The translations under genes and the position numbers were made by a program. From a virus (lineage: Duplodnaviria; Caudoviricetes), in IMG/VR virus record IMGVR_UViG_3300021387_001019, positions 36,934 to 100,933 of that record: a stretch of 64,000 nucleotides of DNA, one strand, 5' to 3'. A model generated the notes under the pieces. It was given only the letters and a program-made list of their open reading frames with translations, was not told where the DNA came from and searched no databases. Shown here piece by piece: positions 8,501-47,475 of this stretch. The first letter of the stretch is position 1. The number at the start of each line of letters is the position of its first letter.

Positions 8501-9467
8501 ATGATGAGATTTTTGATTTGATTAATGATTTAAAAGATGGATACGATGATATTGATGAAGCTGTCAGGACTATTATGAGCAAATAAAAGACACGTTTGAC
8601 GGAGGGAGATTAAATGGCAAATTATATTGTTACATTTACAAAGTATATGGAATATTGTGTGAACGCAGAAGACGAGAACGAAGCGGAAGATAAAGCTTAT
8701 AAACTTTTTTATAGAGACGCTACATACTCAGTTGCTGATACTCATTATGATGAGGTCGATATTGAGGAAATAGATGAAGATGAATAAAATACACGCCTTA
8801 TAAAGGGAGACGATGATATGACAGAAGTCATTCAGCAATGGAAAAATGAAGCACTTGGACTCAGAAATGTTTATAAAGACACAACAGCATTTCATGTAGA
8901 TGGAAACACATTATATCTGATTACAAAATATCCGGGTTTGTTTATTGGTTATCATGGAAACTTAGTTAATAAATACGAAGAAAAACTTGGCATGAAGGTT
9001 AAGATGATTGAGTTGCATGAAGGTATTACGCAGTTTTGATGAAAGGAGATAATTATATGTCAACAAGATCTTATGTGGGAATTATTAAAGATGGGATGGT
9101 TAAATATGGATATCATCATTGTGATTCGCACTTAGAATCACTTGGTATTGAGTTATTCAATATCAAGACGGAATCTGAATTGCTCACTAAAATTGATGTT
9201 CTTGCGGAACTTGATACGGGTGGTTGTGTATCTGTAAATGATTATTTCAGAATACCAAAAGAAGATATATTCATAGAATTTTGTTATGGATTTAATGTTG
9301 ATGATAATGAATGGTATGTAAGTTCATGTCATTTTATAAACCAGGACAAAATGTACAAGCTGACTGAGTTAGTTAAAAATGATGAAGAAATGGAATATTA
9401 TCTGGATAGGTATTATGAAAAATATAGAAAAGAAATATTGAATAAAATTAGAAATGGGATTAAATGA
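2576..9467 (+). other. Cluster of ~25 small hypothetical early-region ORFs (60-143 aa)
   Basis: Closely packed + strand ORFs, mostly with GGAG/GGAGG RBS; many are acidic or carry CxxC pairs; no family recognised. Confidence 0.75.
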
Positions 9468-19445: not shown

Positions 19446-20330
19446 ATGGAAAATAAATTAATTATGGTTGGTATTGGAAATAAAATTCTTTATATTGATA
19501 AAGAATATTTTAGTAAGCCAAAAAAGCGTGTAATTCGAAAAAACATATTTGAGAGTAATTCATCATCTTCGCACTCGATTGTGATAACCAAAAATGATTC
19601 TCACTTTACTGAGGAAGATCTCACCAATCAAGAAATTAACGGAAAATATAACCATAATCATGTCTTTCTAAATAATAATGGAGAAATGTGGCTGTGGGAT
19701 ATAAATGAAGGTTTTGATCGTTCGTTTCATTTTCTTACAACTTTTGAGGAAAAGTTGAAGTATGCAATGTGCGAATACCTCGGATATATGTACGGAGATG
19801 AAGACGAATTTGCTGATATGTTGGATACATTTAAAGCAATTGTGAAAGATGTGCTACCAGGATTTACTGATTTTGATATTCCTATGATTGAAAAAGATGT
19901 CTATCTGGATGAAAAAGGAAATCAAATTCCATACAAAAAATTAAAGTATGTTGGTGACAAAACTAATGAAGATGGCGATTGGATTTCTCGCTATAATTAC
20001 ATTGATGAAAACGGCAATGTAAAAGAAGCTATCCTTGATATGGAATGTGTAATTGAGATACCGGATATCGGAATGATTGATCACCAGAGTGCAGGTACTT
20101 TAAAAAATTTCCTAAGAGAAAAGGGAATCACATTGAAAGAATTTCTTATTAATAAGAAATACGTGGTGATTACTGATAGTGATGAAACTTGCCAGTGGGA
20201 GAAACTAAAACAGAGCGGAATATTTGATATTAATAGCAGCATTGTAGAAGAATACTCAACGTCAAATGATGACATAGAATATCAGAAATGGAAGGAGATG
20301 CATAAAGATGAAGAGATCACAGAGGACTAA
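19446..20330 (+). CDS. Hypothetical protein with N-terminal R-x-N-x-F-E-S-N-S-S-S-x-H-S motif (paralog 1)
   Basis: KKRVIRKNIFESNSSSSHSIVI; also IDHQS. Confidence 0.8.
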   Translation: MENKLIMVGIGNKILYIDKEYFSKPKKRVIRKNIFESNSSSSHSIVITKNDSHFTEEDLTNQEINGKYNHNHVFLNNNGEMWLWDINEGFDRSFHFLTTFEEKLKYAMCEYLGYMYGDEDEFADMLDTFKAIVKDVLPGFTDFDIPMIEKDVYLDEKGNQIPYKKLKYVGDKTNEDGDWISRYNYIDENGNVKEAILDMECVIEIPDIGMIDHQSAGTLKNFLREKGITLKEFLINKKYVVITDSDETCQWEKLKQSGIFDINSSIVEEYSTSNDDIEYQKWKEMHKDEEITED

Positions 20331-40489: not shown

Positions 40490-41205
40490 CTACATGAGAG
40501 TGCCAGAAGAAATTATAAAGGAAAAACTTGATAACCATTTTAACTGGTTAATTAAAGACGATTTATTTCCTAATCCAATACAGCAACAAGAGATTGATAA
40601 ACAATTAAATGAAATCTCTATATTTGAGAAGAAAAGAAATGGTAAATTCCGATTTAAGAAGCAGCATAATTCAAATACCAAAGAAATCAAAATCGGTGAC
40701 ATTGTTAAAAAAGATAAAAAACTTGCAACTGTAATTGATATTGATGGGGATGAGTTATGCTGCCAGATTGGGGAGGAGATAGTTATTTGGAATAAAAATG
40801 AGGTGAGAAATACATCATGATGGTATATGCAGTTTTGAAGGGTTGGTATTCGGATCGACACATAGTTGGAATAGTTGAATCAGAAGAGGAAGCAAAAGAA
40901 TTATGCAAGATGTTTAATAAAGAAACACGTTATGATAGCGATTCTGTTTCATATGAAGAATTTGATACGAAAAAATTTGCCGATAAGAGATTCAGGTTCA
41001 TCGTAAATGATTACGCTGGTCTCGGCGATTGGGAATGTGAATATGATGATTACGATCTCTATAAAAACTATAAAGACACAACAAGTCTAGGTGGTTCCGG
41101 TTTCATTGTATATGCAGAATCCCCACAACAAGCAATTAAAATTGCCCAGGATATGAGAGCGATGGAATTAGCAGAAAAGGAAGGAATTATCTGATAGGTG
41201 AGAAA

Positions 41206-41673
41206 ATGCAAACTATATATTTAGCGGCACCAATAGTCGGAATATCAGATGATATTAGACAAGAAGTAATCTACATAAAGAATATCTTATTGCAATCGGG
41301 TTTCTCGGTGTATGATCCCCGTGATCACGGAGTTATTAATGCATGGGGGATGTCGCTAAATGAGTGGGCAAGGTGCATATTTAATCTTGATGTGGTTGCA
41401 ATAGATAATTGTGACTGGATGGTTGTTTTGGATTATGGACGACAAATAACTGCTGGTACAGCTTGGGAATGTGGTTATGCATTTGGTAAAGGCAAGAAGA
41501 TTCTCATTATTGAGATGTTCAATGAAAATGAATACTCGGTAATGATGAGAGGTTGCAGTTCTAATTATTGCAAGCTTAGAGAATTTGTTAACACCGGCAT
41601 TGGCGAAATTCCCGGCAAATTTTTTATTGAGCGTGGTCGTATCCAAAAAAATGATACCGTGACGCTGAATTAA
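41206..41673 (+). CDS. Nucleoside 2-deoxyribosyltransferase family protein
   Basis: IYLAAP, VYDP, DVVAIDNCD, GTAWECGYAFGKGK. Confidence 0.85.
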   Translation: MQTIYLAAPIVGISDDIRQEVIYIKNILLQSGFSVYDPRDHGVINAWGMSLNEWARCIFNLDVVAIDNCDWMVVLDYGRQITAGTAWECGYAFGKGKKILIIEMFNENEYSVMMRGCSSNYCKLREFVNTGIGEIPGKFFIERGRIQKNDTVTLN

Positions 41674-42237
41674 CAAACAAAATAATAAAGAGAGGTAATA
41701 AATATGACGGAAAATATGGAGAATAAGATTAAAGAAGTAACAAAAATCACTGCTACACAGGCAAGAGAAGCGACTGATAAGTATCTTAGAGAGCATGATG
41801 CGAAGAAAAATGAGGAGGAACTTAACAGTGTGTATCTTGCAGTTGCAGAGGCATCTTCACAAGGACGTAGGAAAACAAAGATTGACCATGTTCTTTCCCA
41901 GTGGACGATTGATAAACTGAAAGAGGATGGTTATAAAATCAATTATATATTCGATTCTATCGCCGACATTTTCTGGTATGATAGCATTTGGAAAACAGCA
42001 AAAACACTGATTGAATGGTAATGGTTTGAAACGACATTTTCATCGGATATAAATGTTGCCATGCTCAAATGGCTGCGGTGCGAATGTAGAGTGAACATGA
42101 AAGTATAAGGACATTCGCACTGAAATTTAATATCATATCTGATATGATGTTTTATCTATATTAAAAATGATTTATTATTTTATCGTACATTGACAAATGA
42201 AATAATTAAAATGCACGAAATGTTGTGTGTTTTTGCT

Positions 42238-42610
42238 GATACATTTCGTGTATATGCGTAAACACCAAACCTGTTTGGATCTTCGAGACACGCTTGATGA
42301 CTTTGCGATACATTTCGTGTATATGCGTAAACACCAAACAAGCGAGCCGTTTCAATCCCTTCTTTAGTCATCGATGCATTTCGTGCGTGTGCGTAAATAC
42401 CAAACGTAAGTTCTTTCATGATTTGTATCTCTCTTTTCATGATGCATTTTGTGCATATGCGTAAACACCAAACCGTATGACCCATGCAGTAGAGGCAAAA
42501 GCGGTTGCGATGCATTTCGTACTAGTGCGTAAACACCAAACTTTTTAAGCTTCTTTTGTGCTTCTTTTAAAATTGATGCATTTCGTATATGCTGAATAAA
42601 ATTACCAGAC
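42238..42610 (+). CRISPR. CRISPR array: five 33-bp repeats plus one degenerate terminal repeat; five spacers of 36, 33, 35, 35 and 33 bp
   Basis: Repeats at 42238, 42307, 42373, 42441 and 42509 (first two: GATACATTTCGTGTATATGCGTAAACACCAAAC). Degenerate copy at 42575-42610. AT-rich leader on the left. Confidence 0.95.
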
Positions 42611-42709
42611 TCTGTTTGGTTGAATATTGCAACAATATTCTGAAGTCTGTAGTAAACAGACAAAGCCAATATAGTGAGGGGAAACCACTCACTAAAGTTT
42701 ACGCTTTTT
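42611..42709 (+). ncRNA. Predicted tracrRNA between the array and the cas12 gene
   Basis: Split anti-repeat GTTTGGT (42614-42620) and GTTTACGC (42697-42704) complementary to the repeat 3' half GCGTAAAC-ACCAAAC; three hairpins between them; ends in a T-tract. Confidence 0.75.
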
Positions 42710-42723
42710 ATAGGAGGTTAAAA

Positions 42724-44478
42724 TTGAAGAATAAAGAATTTACCAATGCATTAACAAGACACATTAGATTAATTCCTGAAGTTGCGGATGATATTAAAAA
42801 TGATGAAAATATTTTCAAAAAGTATCTTGATGAAAGATATGAATATATTAGAAATGGCAGATATGCCGGAAATAAAGGATTCAATTTAGTCCTTTCCGCT
42901 ACTTCGAGAGCAAAATATCTTGGGCAGAGTCAGGATGAGATTGGTGAGATATTTTATTCGTATAGTCATAGCGGGAATGATGTTGTTTCGGGATTTAGCG
43001 TAGATAAATTAAAATACTTAAAACAACTGGCACCGATTACAGAAGAAGTAATTCAGAATGAATTGAAAAAATATAAAAGCGCAATAAAACGAAACAAAAA
43101 AAATGATGGAGATGAACTAACGAAAACTGATAAAAAGAAAATTGAAGCTGAAGAAAAGAAATTAAGAAAATTTCTTGATGCAACAGAAGAAGATATTCAG
43201 TTTGAAATAAATAAAAAACAACAATACAACAAGTTCCCGGAAGATTTAAATGATAAATGGATGAATGGATGTAAGCAGCCACAGAGAATCGTTAAAAGAG
43301 TTGAGGACTTTTGGAAAAGTTCGTTAGGCGACGATGTTTTGGCTGGCAGATCTTCTTTGCCAATTAGAAGACTTGACGCACCAATCATTCTTCCAAAAGA
43401 TTTATTTTATGATTCAAACAAAAAAACATTTACTGGACTGTATCATAATTATGGTGATTTAACTAAAAAAATATTAACAGATAAAAATCCAGAGGTGTTT
43501 TTAAAGTTGCCATATAAAAAAGATGCACCACCTATGGTTTTTAAAATGGATCTTGGCTATAAGCCAAATAACGTTGTTAGAGATTTTATATATAAAATTT
43601 TTATTGGTGAAATTGAAATCATGGACTGCCAGATGAATTTTACAGAAAACAAAAAGACTCACAAAGATACTGATTTGACTTTATTTTTAACTGGAGAAAT
43701 TCTTAAAAAGAAAGAACATAACCTTGATTATGATAAAGTTATGGGGATTGATTTGGGGTGGAATAATCCTGTAAGCTGGGCTGTGAATTATGACACTTTT
43801 ACACATGATTTTTTAGGCGATATTGAATATAAGAATAAGAAACTTGCAAAAATAGACAAAGAAATTAATGATTTAAGAAAAAGTGTTGCCGATCATGCAA
43901 AGGGCGGTCATGGCTATAAAAGAAAGTGTGAGGCGCTCTTAAAAGCAAAATCATATAAGAGAAATTTTAACAAAACATTTAATGACAGATTAAGTTCTAA
44001 AGTTATACAAACATGTATAAAATTAGGAATTGGAACTATTAAAATGGAAGATCTTTCTGATATTGGAAAGAAAATTAATGGTAAAGGGATATCAAAAGAT
44101 GATGATGAGTTTAAGAATAAAATTATGGCAAACTGGTGTTATTACGAATTACAGCAGATGATTCAATATAAAGCAGCTTTAAACGGAATTGAAGTGTATT
44201 ATATTAATCCCGCATATACATCTCAAACATGTGCATTTTGTGGGCAGAGGGGTATTCGTGGTGTATTTGATAAAAATGGAAAAATGATAGATTCGTCTAA
44301 ATTTTTTTGCATACATGATTTATGTGAAAGCCATAAGATTAATTGGAAAAATGGTGCAATTAATGCTGATAGAAATGCAGCGATGGTTATTGCTAAATCT
44401 GAGGATTATGTGGGAAGTCGTAATGAAGGTCTTTGGAGAAGGAATGTGGGCAAAGATATTAATAAAAATATCGCCTGA
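42724..44478 (+). CDS. cas12f: Compact type V CRISPR effector, Cas12f/TnpB-like (~584 aa)
   Basis: RuvC-I MGIDLG, RuvC-II IKMEDLS, YINPAYTSQTCAFCG, FFCIHDLC, RuvC-III NADRNAA. TTG start after GGAGG (42713-42717), in frame with the track ORF. Subtype assignment is tentative. Confidence 0.88.
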   Translation: MKNKEFTNALTRHIRLIPEVADDIKNDENIFKKYLDERYEYIRNGRYAGNKGFNLVLSATSRAKYLGQSQDEIGEIFYSYSHSGNDVVSGFSVDKLKYLKQLAPITEEVIQNELKKYKSAIKRNKKNDGDELTKTDKKKIEAEEKKLRKFLDATEEDIQFEINKKQQYNKFPEDLNDKWMNGCKQPQRIVKRVEDFWKSSLGDDVLAGRSSLPIRRLDAPIILPKDLFYDSNKKTFTGLYHNYGDLTKKILTDKNPEVFLKLPYKKDAPPMVFKMDLGYKPNNVVRDFIYKIFIGEIEIMDCQMNFTENKKTHKDTDLTLFLTGEILKKKEHNLDYDKVMGIDLGWNNPVSWAVNYDTFTHDFLGDIEYKNKKLAKIDKEINDLRKSVADHAKGGHGYKRKCEALLKAKSYKRNFNKTFNDRLSSKVIQTCIKLGIGTIKMEDLSDIGKKINGKGISKDDDEFKNKIMANWCYYELQQMIQYKAALNGIEVYYINPAYTSQTCAFCGQRGIRGVFDKNGKMIDSSKFFCIHDLCESHKINWKNGAINADRNAAMVIAKSEDYVGSRNEGLWRRNVGKDINKNIA

Positions 44479-44541
44479 TGAAAAATCACTTTCATTGGAA
44501 AATAACAAATAAAATAATAAATAATTAAGGAGTGTAATATT

Positions 44542-45378
44542 ATGCCAGTGCATGATCAGATTGGTATTCGTATGAAAGAATACTACGAACAAATCCCTAA
44601 AACAAAACTTATGCGCCGTTGCCCGGTTGTTTGCCGGGTTGACGGCAAGTCATTCCATAGTTTCACTAAAGGGTTTAAAAAACCATTTGATGAATTATTA
44701 ATCCAGTCTATGCAGGAAACAATGAAATACCTATGTGAAAACATCCAAGGATGTGTACTTGGGTATCAGCAAAGCGATGAGATAAGCTTGTTACTTATTG
44801 ATTATAAAACCTTAGAATCACAGGCATTCTTTGATTATGAAGTCCAAAAGATATGTAGCATTACTGCCTCGATGGCAACGATGGCGTTCAATAGATTTTT
44901 AACAAATAATTATCAACAGTGGATTAAAGAAACTATTCCAGAAGATAAATTAATGGAATCTTCAAACTTACTTAATTATAAAGAGGAATTGATACTTAGT
45001 ACAGTTTATTTTAAAGCAATAGATAAAGGCGCAATGTTTGATGCACGCTGCTTTAATATTCCAAAAGAAGAGGTAACAAACTATTTCTACTGGCGACAGC
45101 TTGATGCAACACGCAATTCAATCCAGATGGTTGGTCAGGCAAATTTCAGTCATAAAGAACTTCAGAATAAATCTTGTAATGAGATCCAGGATATGCTTCA
45201 TGAACAAAGGGGTATTAACTGGAATGATTTCCCCGTGTATCAAAAGCGCGGAAGTTGCTGTATCAAAGTTAATGAACTCGTAAATGATACAATTAGAGGT
45301 AAATGGATTATTGATAAGAAAATTCCGATTTTCAAGGATAACGGCAGAGAATATATTGATCAGTATGTTCTTATATGA
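44542..45378 (+). CDS. tRNA(His) guanylyltransferase Thg1-like protein (3'-5' polymerase)
   Basis: RMKEYYE, RVDGKSFHSFT, YQQSDEIS, FDAR, WRQLDATRNS. Confidence 0.93.
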   Translation: MPVHDQIGIRMKEYYEQIPKTKLMRRCPVVCRVDGKSFHSFTKGFKKPFDELLIQSMQETMKYLCENIQGCVLGYQQSDEISLLLIDYKTLESQAFFDYEVQKICSITASMATMAFNRFLTNNYQQWIKETIPEDKLMESSNLLNYKEELILSTVYFKAIDKGAMFDARCFNIPKEEVTNYFYWRQLDATRNSIQMVGQANFSHKELQNKSCNEIQDMLHEQRGINWNDFPVYQKRGSCCIKVNELVNDTIRGKWIIDKKIPIFKDNGREYIDQYVLI

Positions 45379-45555
45379 GGATAACAGTTATGATAAGATG
45401 CCCGGTTTGCGGAAGATATCTTCCAGCACATATGGTTTATGATAGAAATAAATGTAGATATTATTGGAAGTGTGTCTGTGGTTATGGTTTAGTTACCGAT
45501 CGGGCAGGTTTGTCCGGCATGGATGTGGTTAATAGATATCATTTGGAGGTTAAAA

Positions 45556-47475
45556 ATGTCAAGGATAAATGAAATATTAAAAACAATAAAGAAAGCAAAA
45601 AATGATTACTACTTAACAGGAAGAAGCGAACTAACTGACAAACAATATGATGACCTTGTATCTGAAGCTGAAAGACTTGGTTATCATGAAGATGTTGGTA
45701 CTGCTCCAGCGAACAATATTGACAAAATCCAACATGAACATCAGATGTTGTCATTAAATAAAGCACATACAAATGAAGAAGTAAAGAAATTTATTAATAA
45801 CCATGATTTCGTAATCATGTATAAAGCAGATGGTTTAAGTATCTCAGCAACATATATTGACGGAGCACTTACTCGTCTTGAAACTCGTGGCGATGGTAGC
45901 ACAGGAAATGATGTAATGTTTCACGCAAATTCATTTATCAATTTGCCCAAGTATATTGAAAAACCAGGTAAATATGTTATTGATGGCGAATGTGTGATTT
46001 TATATGAAGATTTTGAAAAAATAAACAGCAAACTTGCTGACTCGGAAAAATATAGTAATCCACGAAATTTAGCTGCTGGATCGTTAAATCAGTTAGACCC
46101 TAATGTTTCTAAGAAAAGATATTTGAGATTTTATGCGTGGGATGTTATTGAAGGTGGATGTAGTTCATTGTATGAAAACCTTGAAGAGGCGACAAATCTC
46201 GGTTTTGATACTGTATATCATATGAAAACCAATGATACTGATCATTTAACTGATTTATTTGATATGGTTCGTCTTGCTGCCAGAAATATTGGTTTTCCAA
46301 TTGACGGAGTTGTAATTAAATATGATGACTTAAAATATGGAAAATCGCTTGGAACAACAGGTCGTTATCCTCTTAATGCGGTGGCTTATAAATTTGAAGA
46401 TGATAAATATCCTACGAAATTAATAAGGGTTGAATGGCAGGTTGGCAAAACAAGTCAGATTACTCCGGTTGCCGTTTTTCAACCAGTTGAGATTAGCGGT
46501 AGTGTTGTTGAAAAATGCAGTCTTCATAATTTAACAGTTATGAAAAGCTTGCAATTAACAAATGGCTGTACCGTGTATGTATACAAGGCCAACGATATAA
46601 TTCCGCAAATTGATAGTGCAGAACCAGATGGCAATGGAGAACTTGAAATACCCAGAGTATGTCCCATTTGTGGCGAACCGACAAAAGTAGTTAAAGACAA
46701 TGATTCAGAAATACTGATGTGTGAAAATGATCTTTGCCCAGGAAAGTTACTTGGGCTGTGGAAACATTTCGTCAGCAGAAAAGCGATGAATATTGATGGT
46801 CTATCAGAACAGACATTGAAGTTGCTCCTCACAAAAGGTTTTATAGCAGAACCATTTGTAACTATATATGAATTAAAGAACTATAAAGATGAGTTATATA
46901 AGTTGCCGGGATTCGGCAAGAAATCAGTAGATAATTTATTAAAGTCTATTGAAAAAAGCAAACAAAATGTTGACTTGGTCAACTTCATTACCGCATTCAG
47001 TATCCCTGGAATTGGGGAAGGTCAGTCAAAGATTATTGCAAAGAAGTTCCCGACATTTGATGAGTTCATGAAAGCCTGTGGCGATGGATTCCGCTTTGAT
47101 TCACTTGATGGAATCGGTGAGATACTTAACCGCAACATCCATAAGTGGTGGTTTAATAATAACTATCAAATGATTGATGTCGGAAATCTCATCACGTTTA
47201 AGCAGCCGGAGATTATGAACAAACCGGAAGGTAGTTTTCCATTGGTTGGCAAAACATTTGTAGTAACCGGCAGCGTTCACCATTTTAAGAATCGTGACGA
47301 ACTCAAGGCAAAGATTGAAGAACTTGGTGGCAAGAATTCCGGCTCGGTTAGTAAGAACACGAATTATTTAATTAACAACGATGTTACTTCAACGTCCGGC
47401 AAAAATGCCAAGGCGAAGGAACTTTGTATCCCGATAATTTCGGAAGAAGATTTCTTGAAAATGATTGATGATTAA
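45556..47475 (+). CDS. ligA: NAD+-dependent DNA ligase
   Basis: MLSLNK, KADG, TRGDG, NPRNLAAGS, DGVVIK, AYKF, zinc finger, BRCT; start at the ATG after GGAGG. Confidence 0.95.
   Translation: MSRINEILKTIKKAKNDYYLTGRSELTDKQYDDLVSEAERLGYHEDVGTAPANNIDKIQHEHQMLSLNKAHTNEEVKKFINNHDFVIMYKADGLSISATYIDGALTRLETRGDGSTGNDVMFHANSFINLPKYIEKPGKYVIDGECVILYEDFEKINSKLADSEKYSNPRNLAAGSLNQLDPNVSKKRYLRFYAWDVIEGGCSSLYENLEEATNLGFDTVYHMKTNDTDHLTDLFDMVRLAARNIGFPIDGVVIKYDDLKYGKSLGTTGRYPLNAVAYKFEDDKYPTKLIRVEWQVGKTSQITPVAVFQPVEISGSVVEKCSLHNLTVMKSLQLTNGCTVYVYKANDIIPQIDSAEPDGNGELEIPRVCPICGEPTKVVKDNDSEILMCENDLCPGKLLGLWKHFVSRKAMNIDGLSEQTLKLLLTKGFIAEPFVTIYELKNYKDELYKLPGFGKKSVDNLLKSIEKSKQNVDLVNFITAFSIPGIGEGQSKIIAKKFPTFDEFMKACGDGFRFDSLDGIGEILNRNIHKWWFNNNYQMIDVGNLITFKQPEIMNKPEGSFPLVGKTFVVTGSVHHFKNRDELKAKIEELGGKNSGSVSKNTNYLINNDVTSTSGKNAKAKELCIPIISEEDFLKMIDD

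Follow-up and report, generated by a model that had tools for sequence, protein, structure and literature searches.

The omega-RNA (reRNA) of TnpB (IS200/IS605) is one molecule, which overlaps both the tnpB 3' end and the end of the transposon, carries one fixed guide in cis and forms a pseudoknot between its 5' strand and the bases just before the guide. In the type V-F1 systems (Un1, As, Sp and Cn Cas12f1; Al3, Os and Rh Cas12f; PDB 9NZO, 8J12, 7WJU) the tracrRNA is encoded beside the array and the gene of a TnpB-like nuclease of 400-600 aa. These tracrRNAs pair with two separate sites in the 3' part of the repeat, one of which is a pseudoknot beside the spacer, and several hairpins lie between the two pairing segments. 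The guide scaffolds of Al3Cas12f have 134 nt, and the Sp and As Cas12f1 tracrRNAs, of 153 and 169 nt, were called 'remarkably long' (PMC8548392). According to a preprint on phage Cas12, the pseudoknot, R:AR-1, is characteristic of Cas12 tracrRNAs (bioRxiv 10.1101/2025.01.20.633832).

The DNA analysed here (the window) is a 64-kb stretch of a 100,933-bp IMG/VR virus record, and an element at 42608-42709 was examined in both. We propose that the + strand from 42608 to about 42704-42709 very probably encodes the tracrRNA for a miniature CRISPR system of type V (Cas12f-like) carried by a gut phage, because it is homologous to a covarying RNA family and both of its pairing segments, i.e. the 5' strand (R:AR-1) and the 3' tail (R:AR-2), co-vary with the repeats. 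The architecture outlined above for the Cas12f1 tracrRNAs is found here too. On the other hand, no similarity of the element to a described RNA, in sequence or by model, was found (Rfam, the searchable papers and the Al3Cas12f supplement), and the element is about 100 nt long (153-169 nt in Sp and As) and lies after the array, directly before the gene. With the tracrRNA of the Cas12 hacker (Cas12p) it has in common the phage origin, an effector in the range of 500-700 aa and an AAAC:UUUG pseudoknot with the repeat end, whereas the native Cas12p tracrRNA has 185 nt and six stems (bioRxiv 10.1101/2025.01.20.633832); no solved structure of that name was present among the structure-search matches of the effector. 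By analogy, the scaffold logic would be that of the omega-RNA, with a pseudoknot and a last helix formed here by tail and repeat. Unlike an omega-RNA, the element is separate from the guides, none of which is fused to it, is located 5' of the gene and serves a five-spacer array.

The features of the locus (positions of the window) are as follows:

42120-42237, + strand: AT-rich leader, on the array side bearing the identical repeats R1 and R2
42238-42541, + strand: CRISPR array, five 33-nt repeats with four spacers of 33-36 nt between them
42238-42270, 42307-42339, 42373-42405, 42441-42473, 42509-42541, + strand: repeats R1-R5
42542-42574, + strand: fifth spacer, after R5
42575-42610, + strand: degenerate terminal (sixth) repeat, 5' half retained, R:AR-2 site gone, 3' end ACCAGAC
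42608-42709, + strand: putative tracrRNA, ~97-102 nt, its ends placed by homology
42712-42726, + strand: Shine-Dalgarno AGGAGG (42712-42717) and TTG start (42724-42726)
42724-44478, + strand: Cas12f-like effector, 584 aa, RuvC and zinc-finger residues intact

The order on the + strand is leader, array, degenerate repeat, a gap of ~113 nt holding the element, and the effector gene. The element therefore lies where the original prediction, made from the window alone, had put it, between array and effector (array 42238-42610, element 42608-42709, gene 42724-44478, all +). The whole record contains a single array, and Cas1 was not found in it. Promoter-like matches in the leader (42108-42148) reach weak consensus only. 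The leader also includes ATGCACGAAATGT (42211-42223), which complements the first repeat in its 5' half. A -35-like TTGATG (42573-42578) and a -10-like TAAAAT (42597-42602) fall in the stretch of the degenerate terminal repeat, and relatives share this layout, where a truncated last repeat leads into the following tracrRNA and likewise has a TAAAAT-like box. For the spacers, neither the phage's own record nor GenBank phages contained a target, except for one 39-nt match of 87% in the latter (E 0.03), which we took as chance. Two spacers had no exact match in IMG/VR, and a scan of the repeat 15-mer against viral contigs returned single chance matches only.

The 3' 15 nt of the repeat (GCGTAAAC followed by ACCAAAC) are invariant apart from one change that preserves a G-U pair. 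Repeat variation had been described as concentrated in the 5' half, and the counts in repeats 3-5 agree with this, with 13 changes in the 5' 18 nt versus one in the 3' 15 nt (binomial P ~0.003). The lone 3'-half change is a C>T in repeat 3, which, again as predicted, still allows a G-U pair with the anti-repeat, the partner being G42697. The 5' half of the repeat forms a hairpin of its own, ATACA-TTTCG-TGTAT (42239-42255, and the same place in the other repeats), which the tracrRNA leaves untouched. Its stem contains a G-U pair in repeat 3, carries a compensatory change in repeat 4 (ATGCA/TGCAT) and is disrupted in repeat 5.

Direct reading of the element found all of the motifs listed in the original prediction at their positions. 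From 5' to 3' its parts are:

42614-42620, + strand: 5' anti-repeat (R:AR-1), pseudoknot strand GUUUGGU, complementary to the last 7 repeat nt, ACCAAAC
42622-42640, + strand: hairpin 1, GAATATTG/CAATATTC, 8 bp, loop CAA, aligning to family helix 2
42645-42661, + strand: hairpin 2, GTCTGT/ACAGAC, 6 bp, loop AGUAA, aligning to family helix 3
42664-42669, + strand: AGCCAA, homologue of the 3' strand (RYRCC) of the family closing helix P1
42672-42694, + strand: hairpin 3, TAGTGAGGG-gaaa-CC-a-CTCACTA, with the conserved GUGAG-loop-CUCAC and then UAAA, a motif common to the relatives
42697-42704, + strand: 3' anti-repeat (R:AR-2), tail GUUUACGC, complementary to GCGUAAAC of the repeat
42705-42709, + strand: T5 run

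The fold of the element has an energy of -29 kcal/mol (z = -4.1). P1 is poor, as GACUC (42608-42612) could form three of five pairs with AAGCC, and in the free RNA an alternative fold is predicted, in which UUGGUU (42616-42621) pairs with AGCCAA. Rfam 15 gave no relevant covariance-model match in 41000-46000, even at E up to 10.

Taken together, GTTTGGT (42614-42620) and GTTTACGC (42697-42704) are the exact complement of the last 15 repeat nt, split 7 + 8 and separated by 76 nt with three hairpins. On the side of the repeat, the R:AR-2 site GCGUAAAC ends exactly 7 nt before the repeat 3' end and is followed by ACCAAAC. A search of both strands that allowed any split point and gaps of 30-220 nt found one exact 15/15 split anti-repeat in the 64-kb window; the chance expectation is 0.083 per simulated 64 kb (both strands), and about 1e-4 for the gap between array and gene (~113-115 nt). 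Co-folding with the crRNA predicted exactly the proposed split duplex with a gain of -16 to -18 kcal/mol, against -5.9 +/- 2.2 kcal/mol for shuffled repeat ends. Pairing of the repeat through two segments had been cited as established, and it does correspond to the canonical type V pseudoknot geometry rather than to a peculiarity of this locus (bioRxiv 10.1101/2025.01.20.633832).

Related systems were found in 70 phage loci, whose effectors are 26-38% identical in the best aligned segment. In the closest of them, L002, the hairpin GTGAG-loop-CTCACTAAA is followed by a stretch complementary to the local repeat, and the motif occurs both upstream and downstream of the gene. About 45 related phage loci carry the same motif (GTGAG-N3-16-CTCACTAAA), frequently in 2-4 copies and without exception on the strand of the effector gene; neither the searchable papers nor the Al3Cas12f supplement yielded it. 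Thirty-four non-redundant elements, named type A, align to one structure, which consists of P1 (GGYRY with RYRCC), two hairpins and the GUGAG/CUCAC hairpin and leaves the 5' GUUUUG strand and the 3' tail single-stranded. Compensatory changes occur in 17/26 pairs of this alignment. Family helix 2 shows them in 7/7 pairs.

From these 34 elements of other phage loci, with the window left out, we built the covariance model R1. Its top match, for the 64-kb window as well as for the complete 100.9-kb record, is 42608-42708 (+), at 30.8 bits and a modest, roughly calibrated E-value of ~3e-4, and it covers the full length of the model (positions 1-97 of 97). Two weaker matches, at 9109-9203 and 19466-19535, fall within reading frames, and we regard them as chance. 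When run on 90 loci, R1 gave 106 matches, all on the effector strand; they come from the phage clade and from a single Pseudobutyrivibrio MAG, and none from the Bacteroides-type Cas12f loci (L072-L075, L077, L081). In an alignment of 55 sequences, window included, 98.1% of the cells are paired, compared with 75.7% in shuffles and 33-49% with slid partners, and 22/26 pairs have changes on both sides (compensatory), although this alignment was fitted to the model, which favours pair counts. The elements were assigned to the effector strand because their frequent U-G/G-U pairs can be read on that strand only.

The original prediction had called the tracrRNA unusually short. This holds in comparison with the published Cas12f1 tracrRNAs of 153 and 169 nt (PMC8548392), but not within its own phage family, where type-A elements are 89-108 nt long, counted from the start of P1 up to the 11th nt of the tail. 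On these sequence comparisons, the element belongs to an RNA family that is conserved among related phages and has so far not been described, and its design is the known Cas12f/TnpB one. It has in common with the phage Cas12f-like loci (L002-L068, L076) the pseudoknot strand, two hairpins, RYRCC, GUGAG/CUCAC, UAAA and the tail, arranged in this order. It differs from them in that little is left of P1, the two repeat pairings adjoin each other (15 bp) and a single copy follows its array, whereas the relatives have 1-4 tracrRNA-array modules with the tracrRNA first. In addition, its effector is 30-35% identical to theirs and ~130 aa longer.

Two further arrangements were observed among the relatives. 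A second architecture, type B (~57-60 nt by model; L002:2669-2726, L009:4052-4109, L029:4088-4145 and others), displays the pseudoknot strand as a 6-nt hairpin loop, this hairpin immediately preceding the GUGAG one, and L002 carries one type A and one type B element, on either side of the gene. Furthermore, three to four tandem modules, each consisting of a tracrRNA and a mini-array of 1-3 repeats, lie behind one effector in L004:4100-4850, L011:4100-5200 and L012:4090-4900, and also in L016-L020 and L028. Both the pseudoknot pair (GUUUUG/CAAAAC, GUUUCG/CGAAAC, GUUCUG/CAGAAC) and the tail/repeat pair are matched separately within each module, and these modules look like several orthogonal guide scaffolds for one nuclease.

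The co-variation of the two pairing segments with the repeats was examined across this family of related phage loci. The 5' strand tracks the last 5-7 nt of the repeat, in the combinations GUUUUG/CAAAAC, GUUCUG/CAGAAC, GUUUCG/CGAAAC, UUCAG/CUGAA, CUUUG/CAAAG and UUUGG/CCAAA, and GUUUGGU/ACCAAAC is the instance of this rule in the window. Over 20 distinct combinations 97/100 cells are paired, compared with 82 +/- 2.2 cells for shuffled partners, and none of 5000 shuffles reached the observed 97. CCAAAA was considered as an internal partner of the 5' strand and rejected, as it does not track the changes: in the third element of L004 the strand is GUUCUG and CCAAAA is unchanged. The 3' tail forms 8-15 bp with its cognate repeat across loci, at a site separated from the repeat 3' end by exactly 7 nt, and compensatory tail/repeat variants are many, e.g. 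AUUUGUGUAAU with AUUACACAAAU and UACCGUGUAG with UUACACGGUA. The tail of the window has the family geometry in different letters; its R:AR-2 has 8 bp, whereas most relatives have 10-15 bp. An unconstrained test of tail-versus-array pairing discriminated poorly because the family tails are alike and the DNA is AT-rich, and geometry-constrained tables were used instead. The original prediction of a tracrRNA on the effector strand whose anti-repeat is in two parts is thus supported by family homology and by co-variation with the repeats across loci.

The gene call of the collection gives the same 584-aa product (P0002), and the homologue P0003 starts at the equivalent residue. Close homologues are P0003 (70% identity) and P0004 (68%); protein and three-protein-alignment scans of viral, metagenome and genome collections returned only relatives of <=40% identity. 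The effector matches NCBIfam guided_TnpB with 107 bits (cut-off 100) and the Pfam Cas12f1-like TNB with E 3e-14, and its best match among solved structures is Al3Cas12f (9NZO and 9NZR; E 5.6e-35). The RuvC residues D343, E442 and D549 and the zinc-ribbon residues C503, C506, C529 and C534 are invariant among 12 relatives. Judged by these matches, the effector is a TnpB-derived Cas12f-type nuclease; with 65 bits against a cut-off of 450 in the Cas12f2 equivalog model, it is no equivalog of Cas12f2. It is ~80-150 aa longer than its relatives of 430-510 aa. The region 43040-43240 (residues ~106-172) is Lys/Glu-rich and probably helical, and its length differs even from that in the 70% homologue. 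The reading frame is open for 45 codons upstream of the TTG (42589-42723), through the last repeat and the whole tracrRNA. Translation from ATG 42589 through the RNA was considered and rejected, as there is no ribosome-binding site there and a strong one precedes TTG 42724, in agreement with the 584-aa gene call and the start of P0003.

From 5' to 3', the proposed RNA would consist of the single-stranded GUUUGGU, two hairpins, AGCCAA (whose equivalent in relatives closes helix P1 around the 5' strand and the two hairpins), the GUGAG/CUCAC hairpin and the tail GUUUACGC. In the guide complex the tail would pair with GCGUAAAC of the repeat (R:AR-2) and the 5' segment with the last seven repeat bases, ACCAAAC, beside the spacer (R:AR-1), and in this way the tracrRNA and the 3' half of the repeat would reconstitute a scaffold like that of an omega-RNA, from which the spacer is presented to the nuclease. 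The RNA probably forms the 5' part of the cas12f mRNA, with a start of its own near G42608 inside the degenerate last repeat, and would be trimmed afterwards by host or effector activities, with read-through from the array as the alternative. We infer its expression, its exact ends, its binding by the protein and the need for it in interference.

The modest E-value, the poor P1, the predicted alternative pairings of the 5' strand in the free RNA and in a read-through transcript, the R:AR-2 of 8 bp, the failure to find a spacer target and the order array-tracrRNA-gene, which is unlike that of the relatives, count against the tracrRNA reading, and two other explanations of the element were weighed. 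It could be a structured 5' untranslated leader of the cas12f mRNA, acting in stability or translation, with a fortuitous complementarity to the repeat and a nuclease that uses the crRNA alone with the repeat's 5' hairpin. The element does end 7 nt before the Shine-Dalgarno sequence with no terminator before the gene, and the hairpin of the repeat, with its compensatory change in repeat 4, could be taken in the same sense. However, 18 nt separate this hairpin from the spacer and repeat 5 disrupts it, the homologous elements of the relatives sit downstream of the effector gene or before arrays and not before the gene, both single-stranded segments co-vary with the repeats, and an exact split anti-repeat is improbable by chance, so that we consider such a leader very improbable. 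We give equally little credence to a decayed remnant, i.e. a former tracrRNA or omega-RNA-like scaffold of a lost downstream array, which is no longer expressed or used. The weakness of P1 would fit such decay, as would the atypical order of elements, since the tracrRNAs of the relatives serve the following array and none follows here. A remnant would not be expected, however, to match the present array at 15/15 positions while most of its tail positions differ from the family consensus; moreover, the three hairpins and the nuclease gene are intact, and the 3' half of the repeat is under visible constraint.

A third alternative, which corresponds to the transcript shared with the crRNAs in the original prediction and alters the biogenesis of the tracrRNA and not its function, is that there is no separate RNA and the element is the 3' end of the pre-crRNA transcript, which acts in cis and is cut only after pairing. 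Array and element are on the same strand, and no terminator-like site was found on the + strand from the leader to the gene end; read-through between array, tracrRNA and gene is therefore possible. The full promoter match in the last repeat (9/12) is no better than in shuffled sequence, and in the one relative scanned no full sigma-70 promoter was found before the tracrRNAs on the right (+) strand. On the other hand, 26-32/34 relatives share a conserved -10-like TAAAAT box that precedes the first G of the RNA by 4-5 nt, and the window has this box at 42597-42602, which hints that the tracrRNA has its own start near 42608; because no full sigma-70 match was found in the relative, this box stays a lead only. 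Furthermore, ACCAGAC, the degenerate repeat end, and GTTTGGT form a 7-bp inverted repeat with a 3-nt loop (42604-42620), and in a read-through transcript the degenerate repeat end is predicted to hold the 5' pairing strand GUUUGGU in a hairpin. On this balance we regard an element acting only in cis as possible, although somewhat doubtful. As for transcription itself, two metatranscriptome runs from different studies contain, of this locus, only the same 178-nt contig, which is identical to the 5' part of cas12f (42856-43033) and does not reach the element; it is a weak hint of cas12f transcription or else carried-over DNA. Two DNA runs contain low-depth fragments of near-identical phages, outside 42349-42776.

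Returning to a tracrRNA with its own start, we may speculate on a coupling between guide scaffold and nuclease, which we hold to be rather unlikely. The tracrRNA would be the 5' untranslated part of the cas12f mRNA, and a start inside the decayed last repeat would tie the supply of scaffold RNA and of nuclease in one transcript. In array read-through, ACCAGAC would mask the pseudoknot strand, while pairing with pre-crRNA and a subsequent cut 7 nt before the ribosome-binding site would free the scaffold and alter the translation or stability of the nuclease mRNA. Array read-through, masking and cut would together give a built-in control of nuclease dosage; if true, such control would be without counterpart in the relatives, whose tracrRNAs precede the arrays.

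For the nuclease itself, the results give a guide design at the sequence level. The design of an sgRNA in the original prediction follows directly from the element, and the model suggests that 42608-42610 be added to it; the 584-aa phage nuclease, which appears to be active, would thus be served by a scaffold of ~97 nt and 15 nt of repeat. The natural co-variation table of both pairing segments is, at the same time, a map of the bases that can be changed jointly. For the gut-phage Cas12f-like clade, the putative tracrRNAs are about one third shorter than the characterised Cas12f1 ones and follow the same pseudoknot logic as TnpB omega-RNAs. The locus, while changing no concept, might be a clear viral example of an omega-RNA-like scaffold that is split into tracrRNA and repeat.
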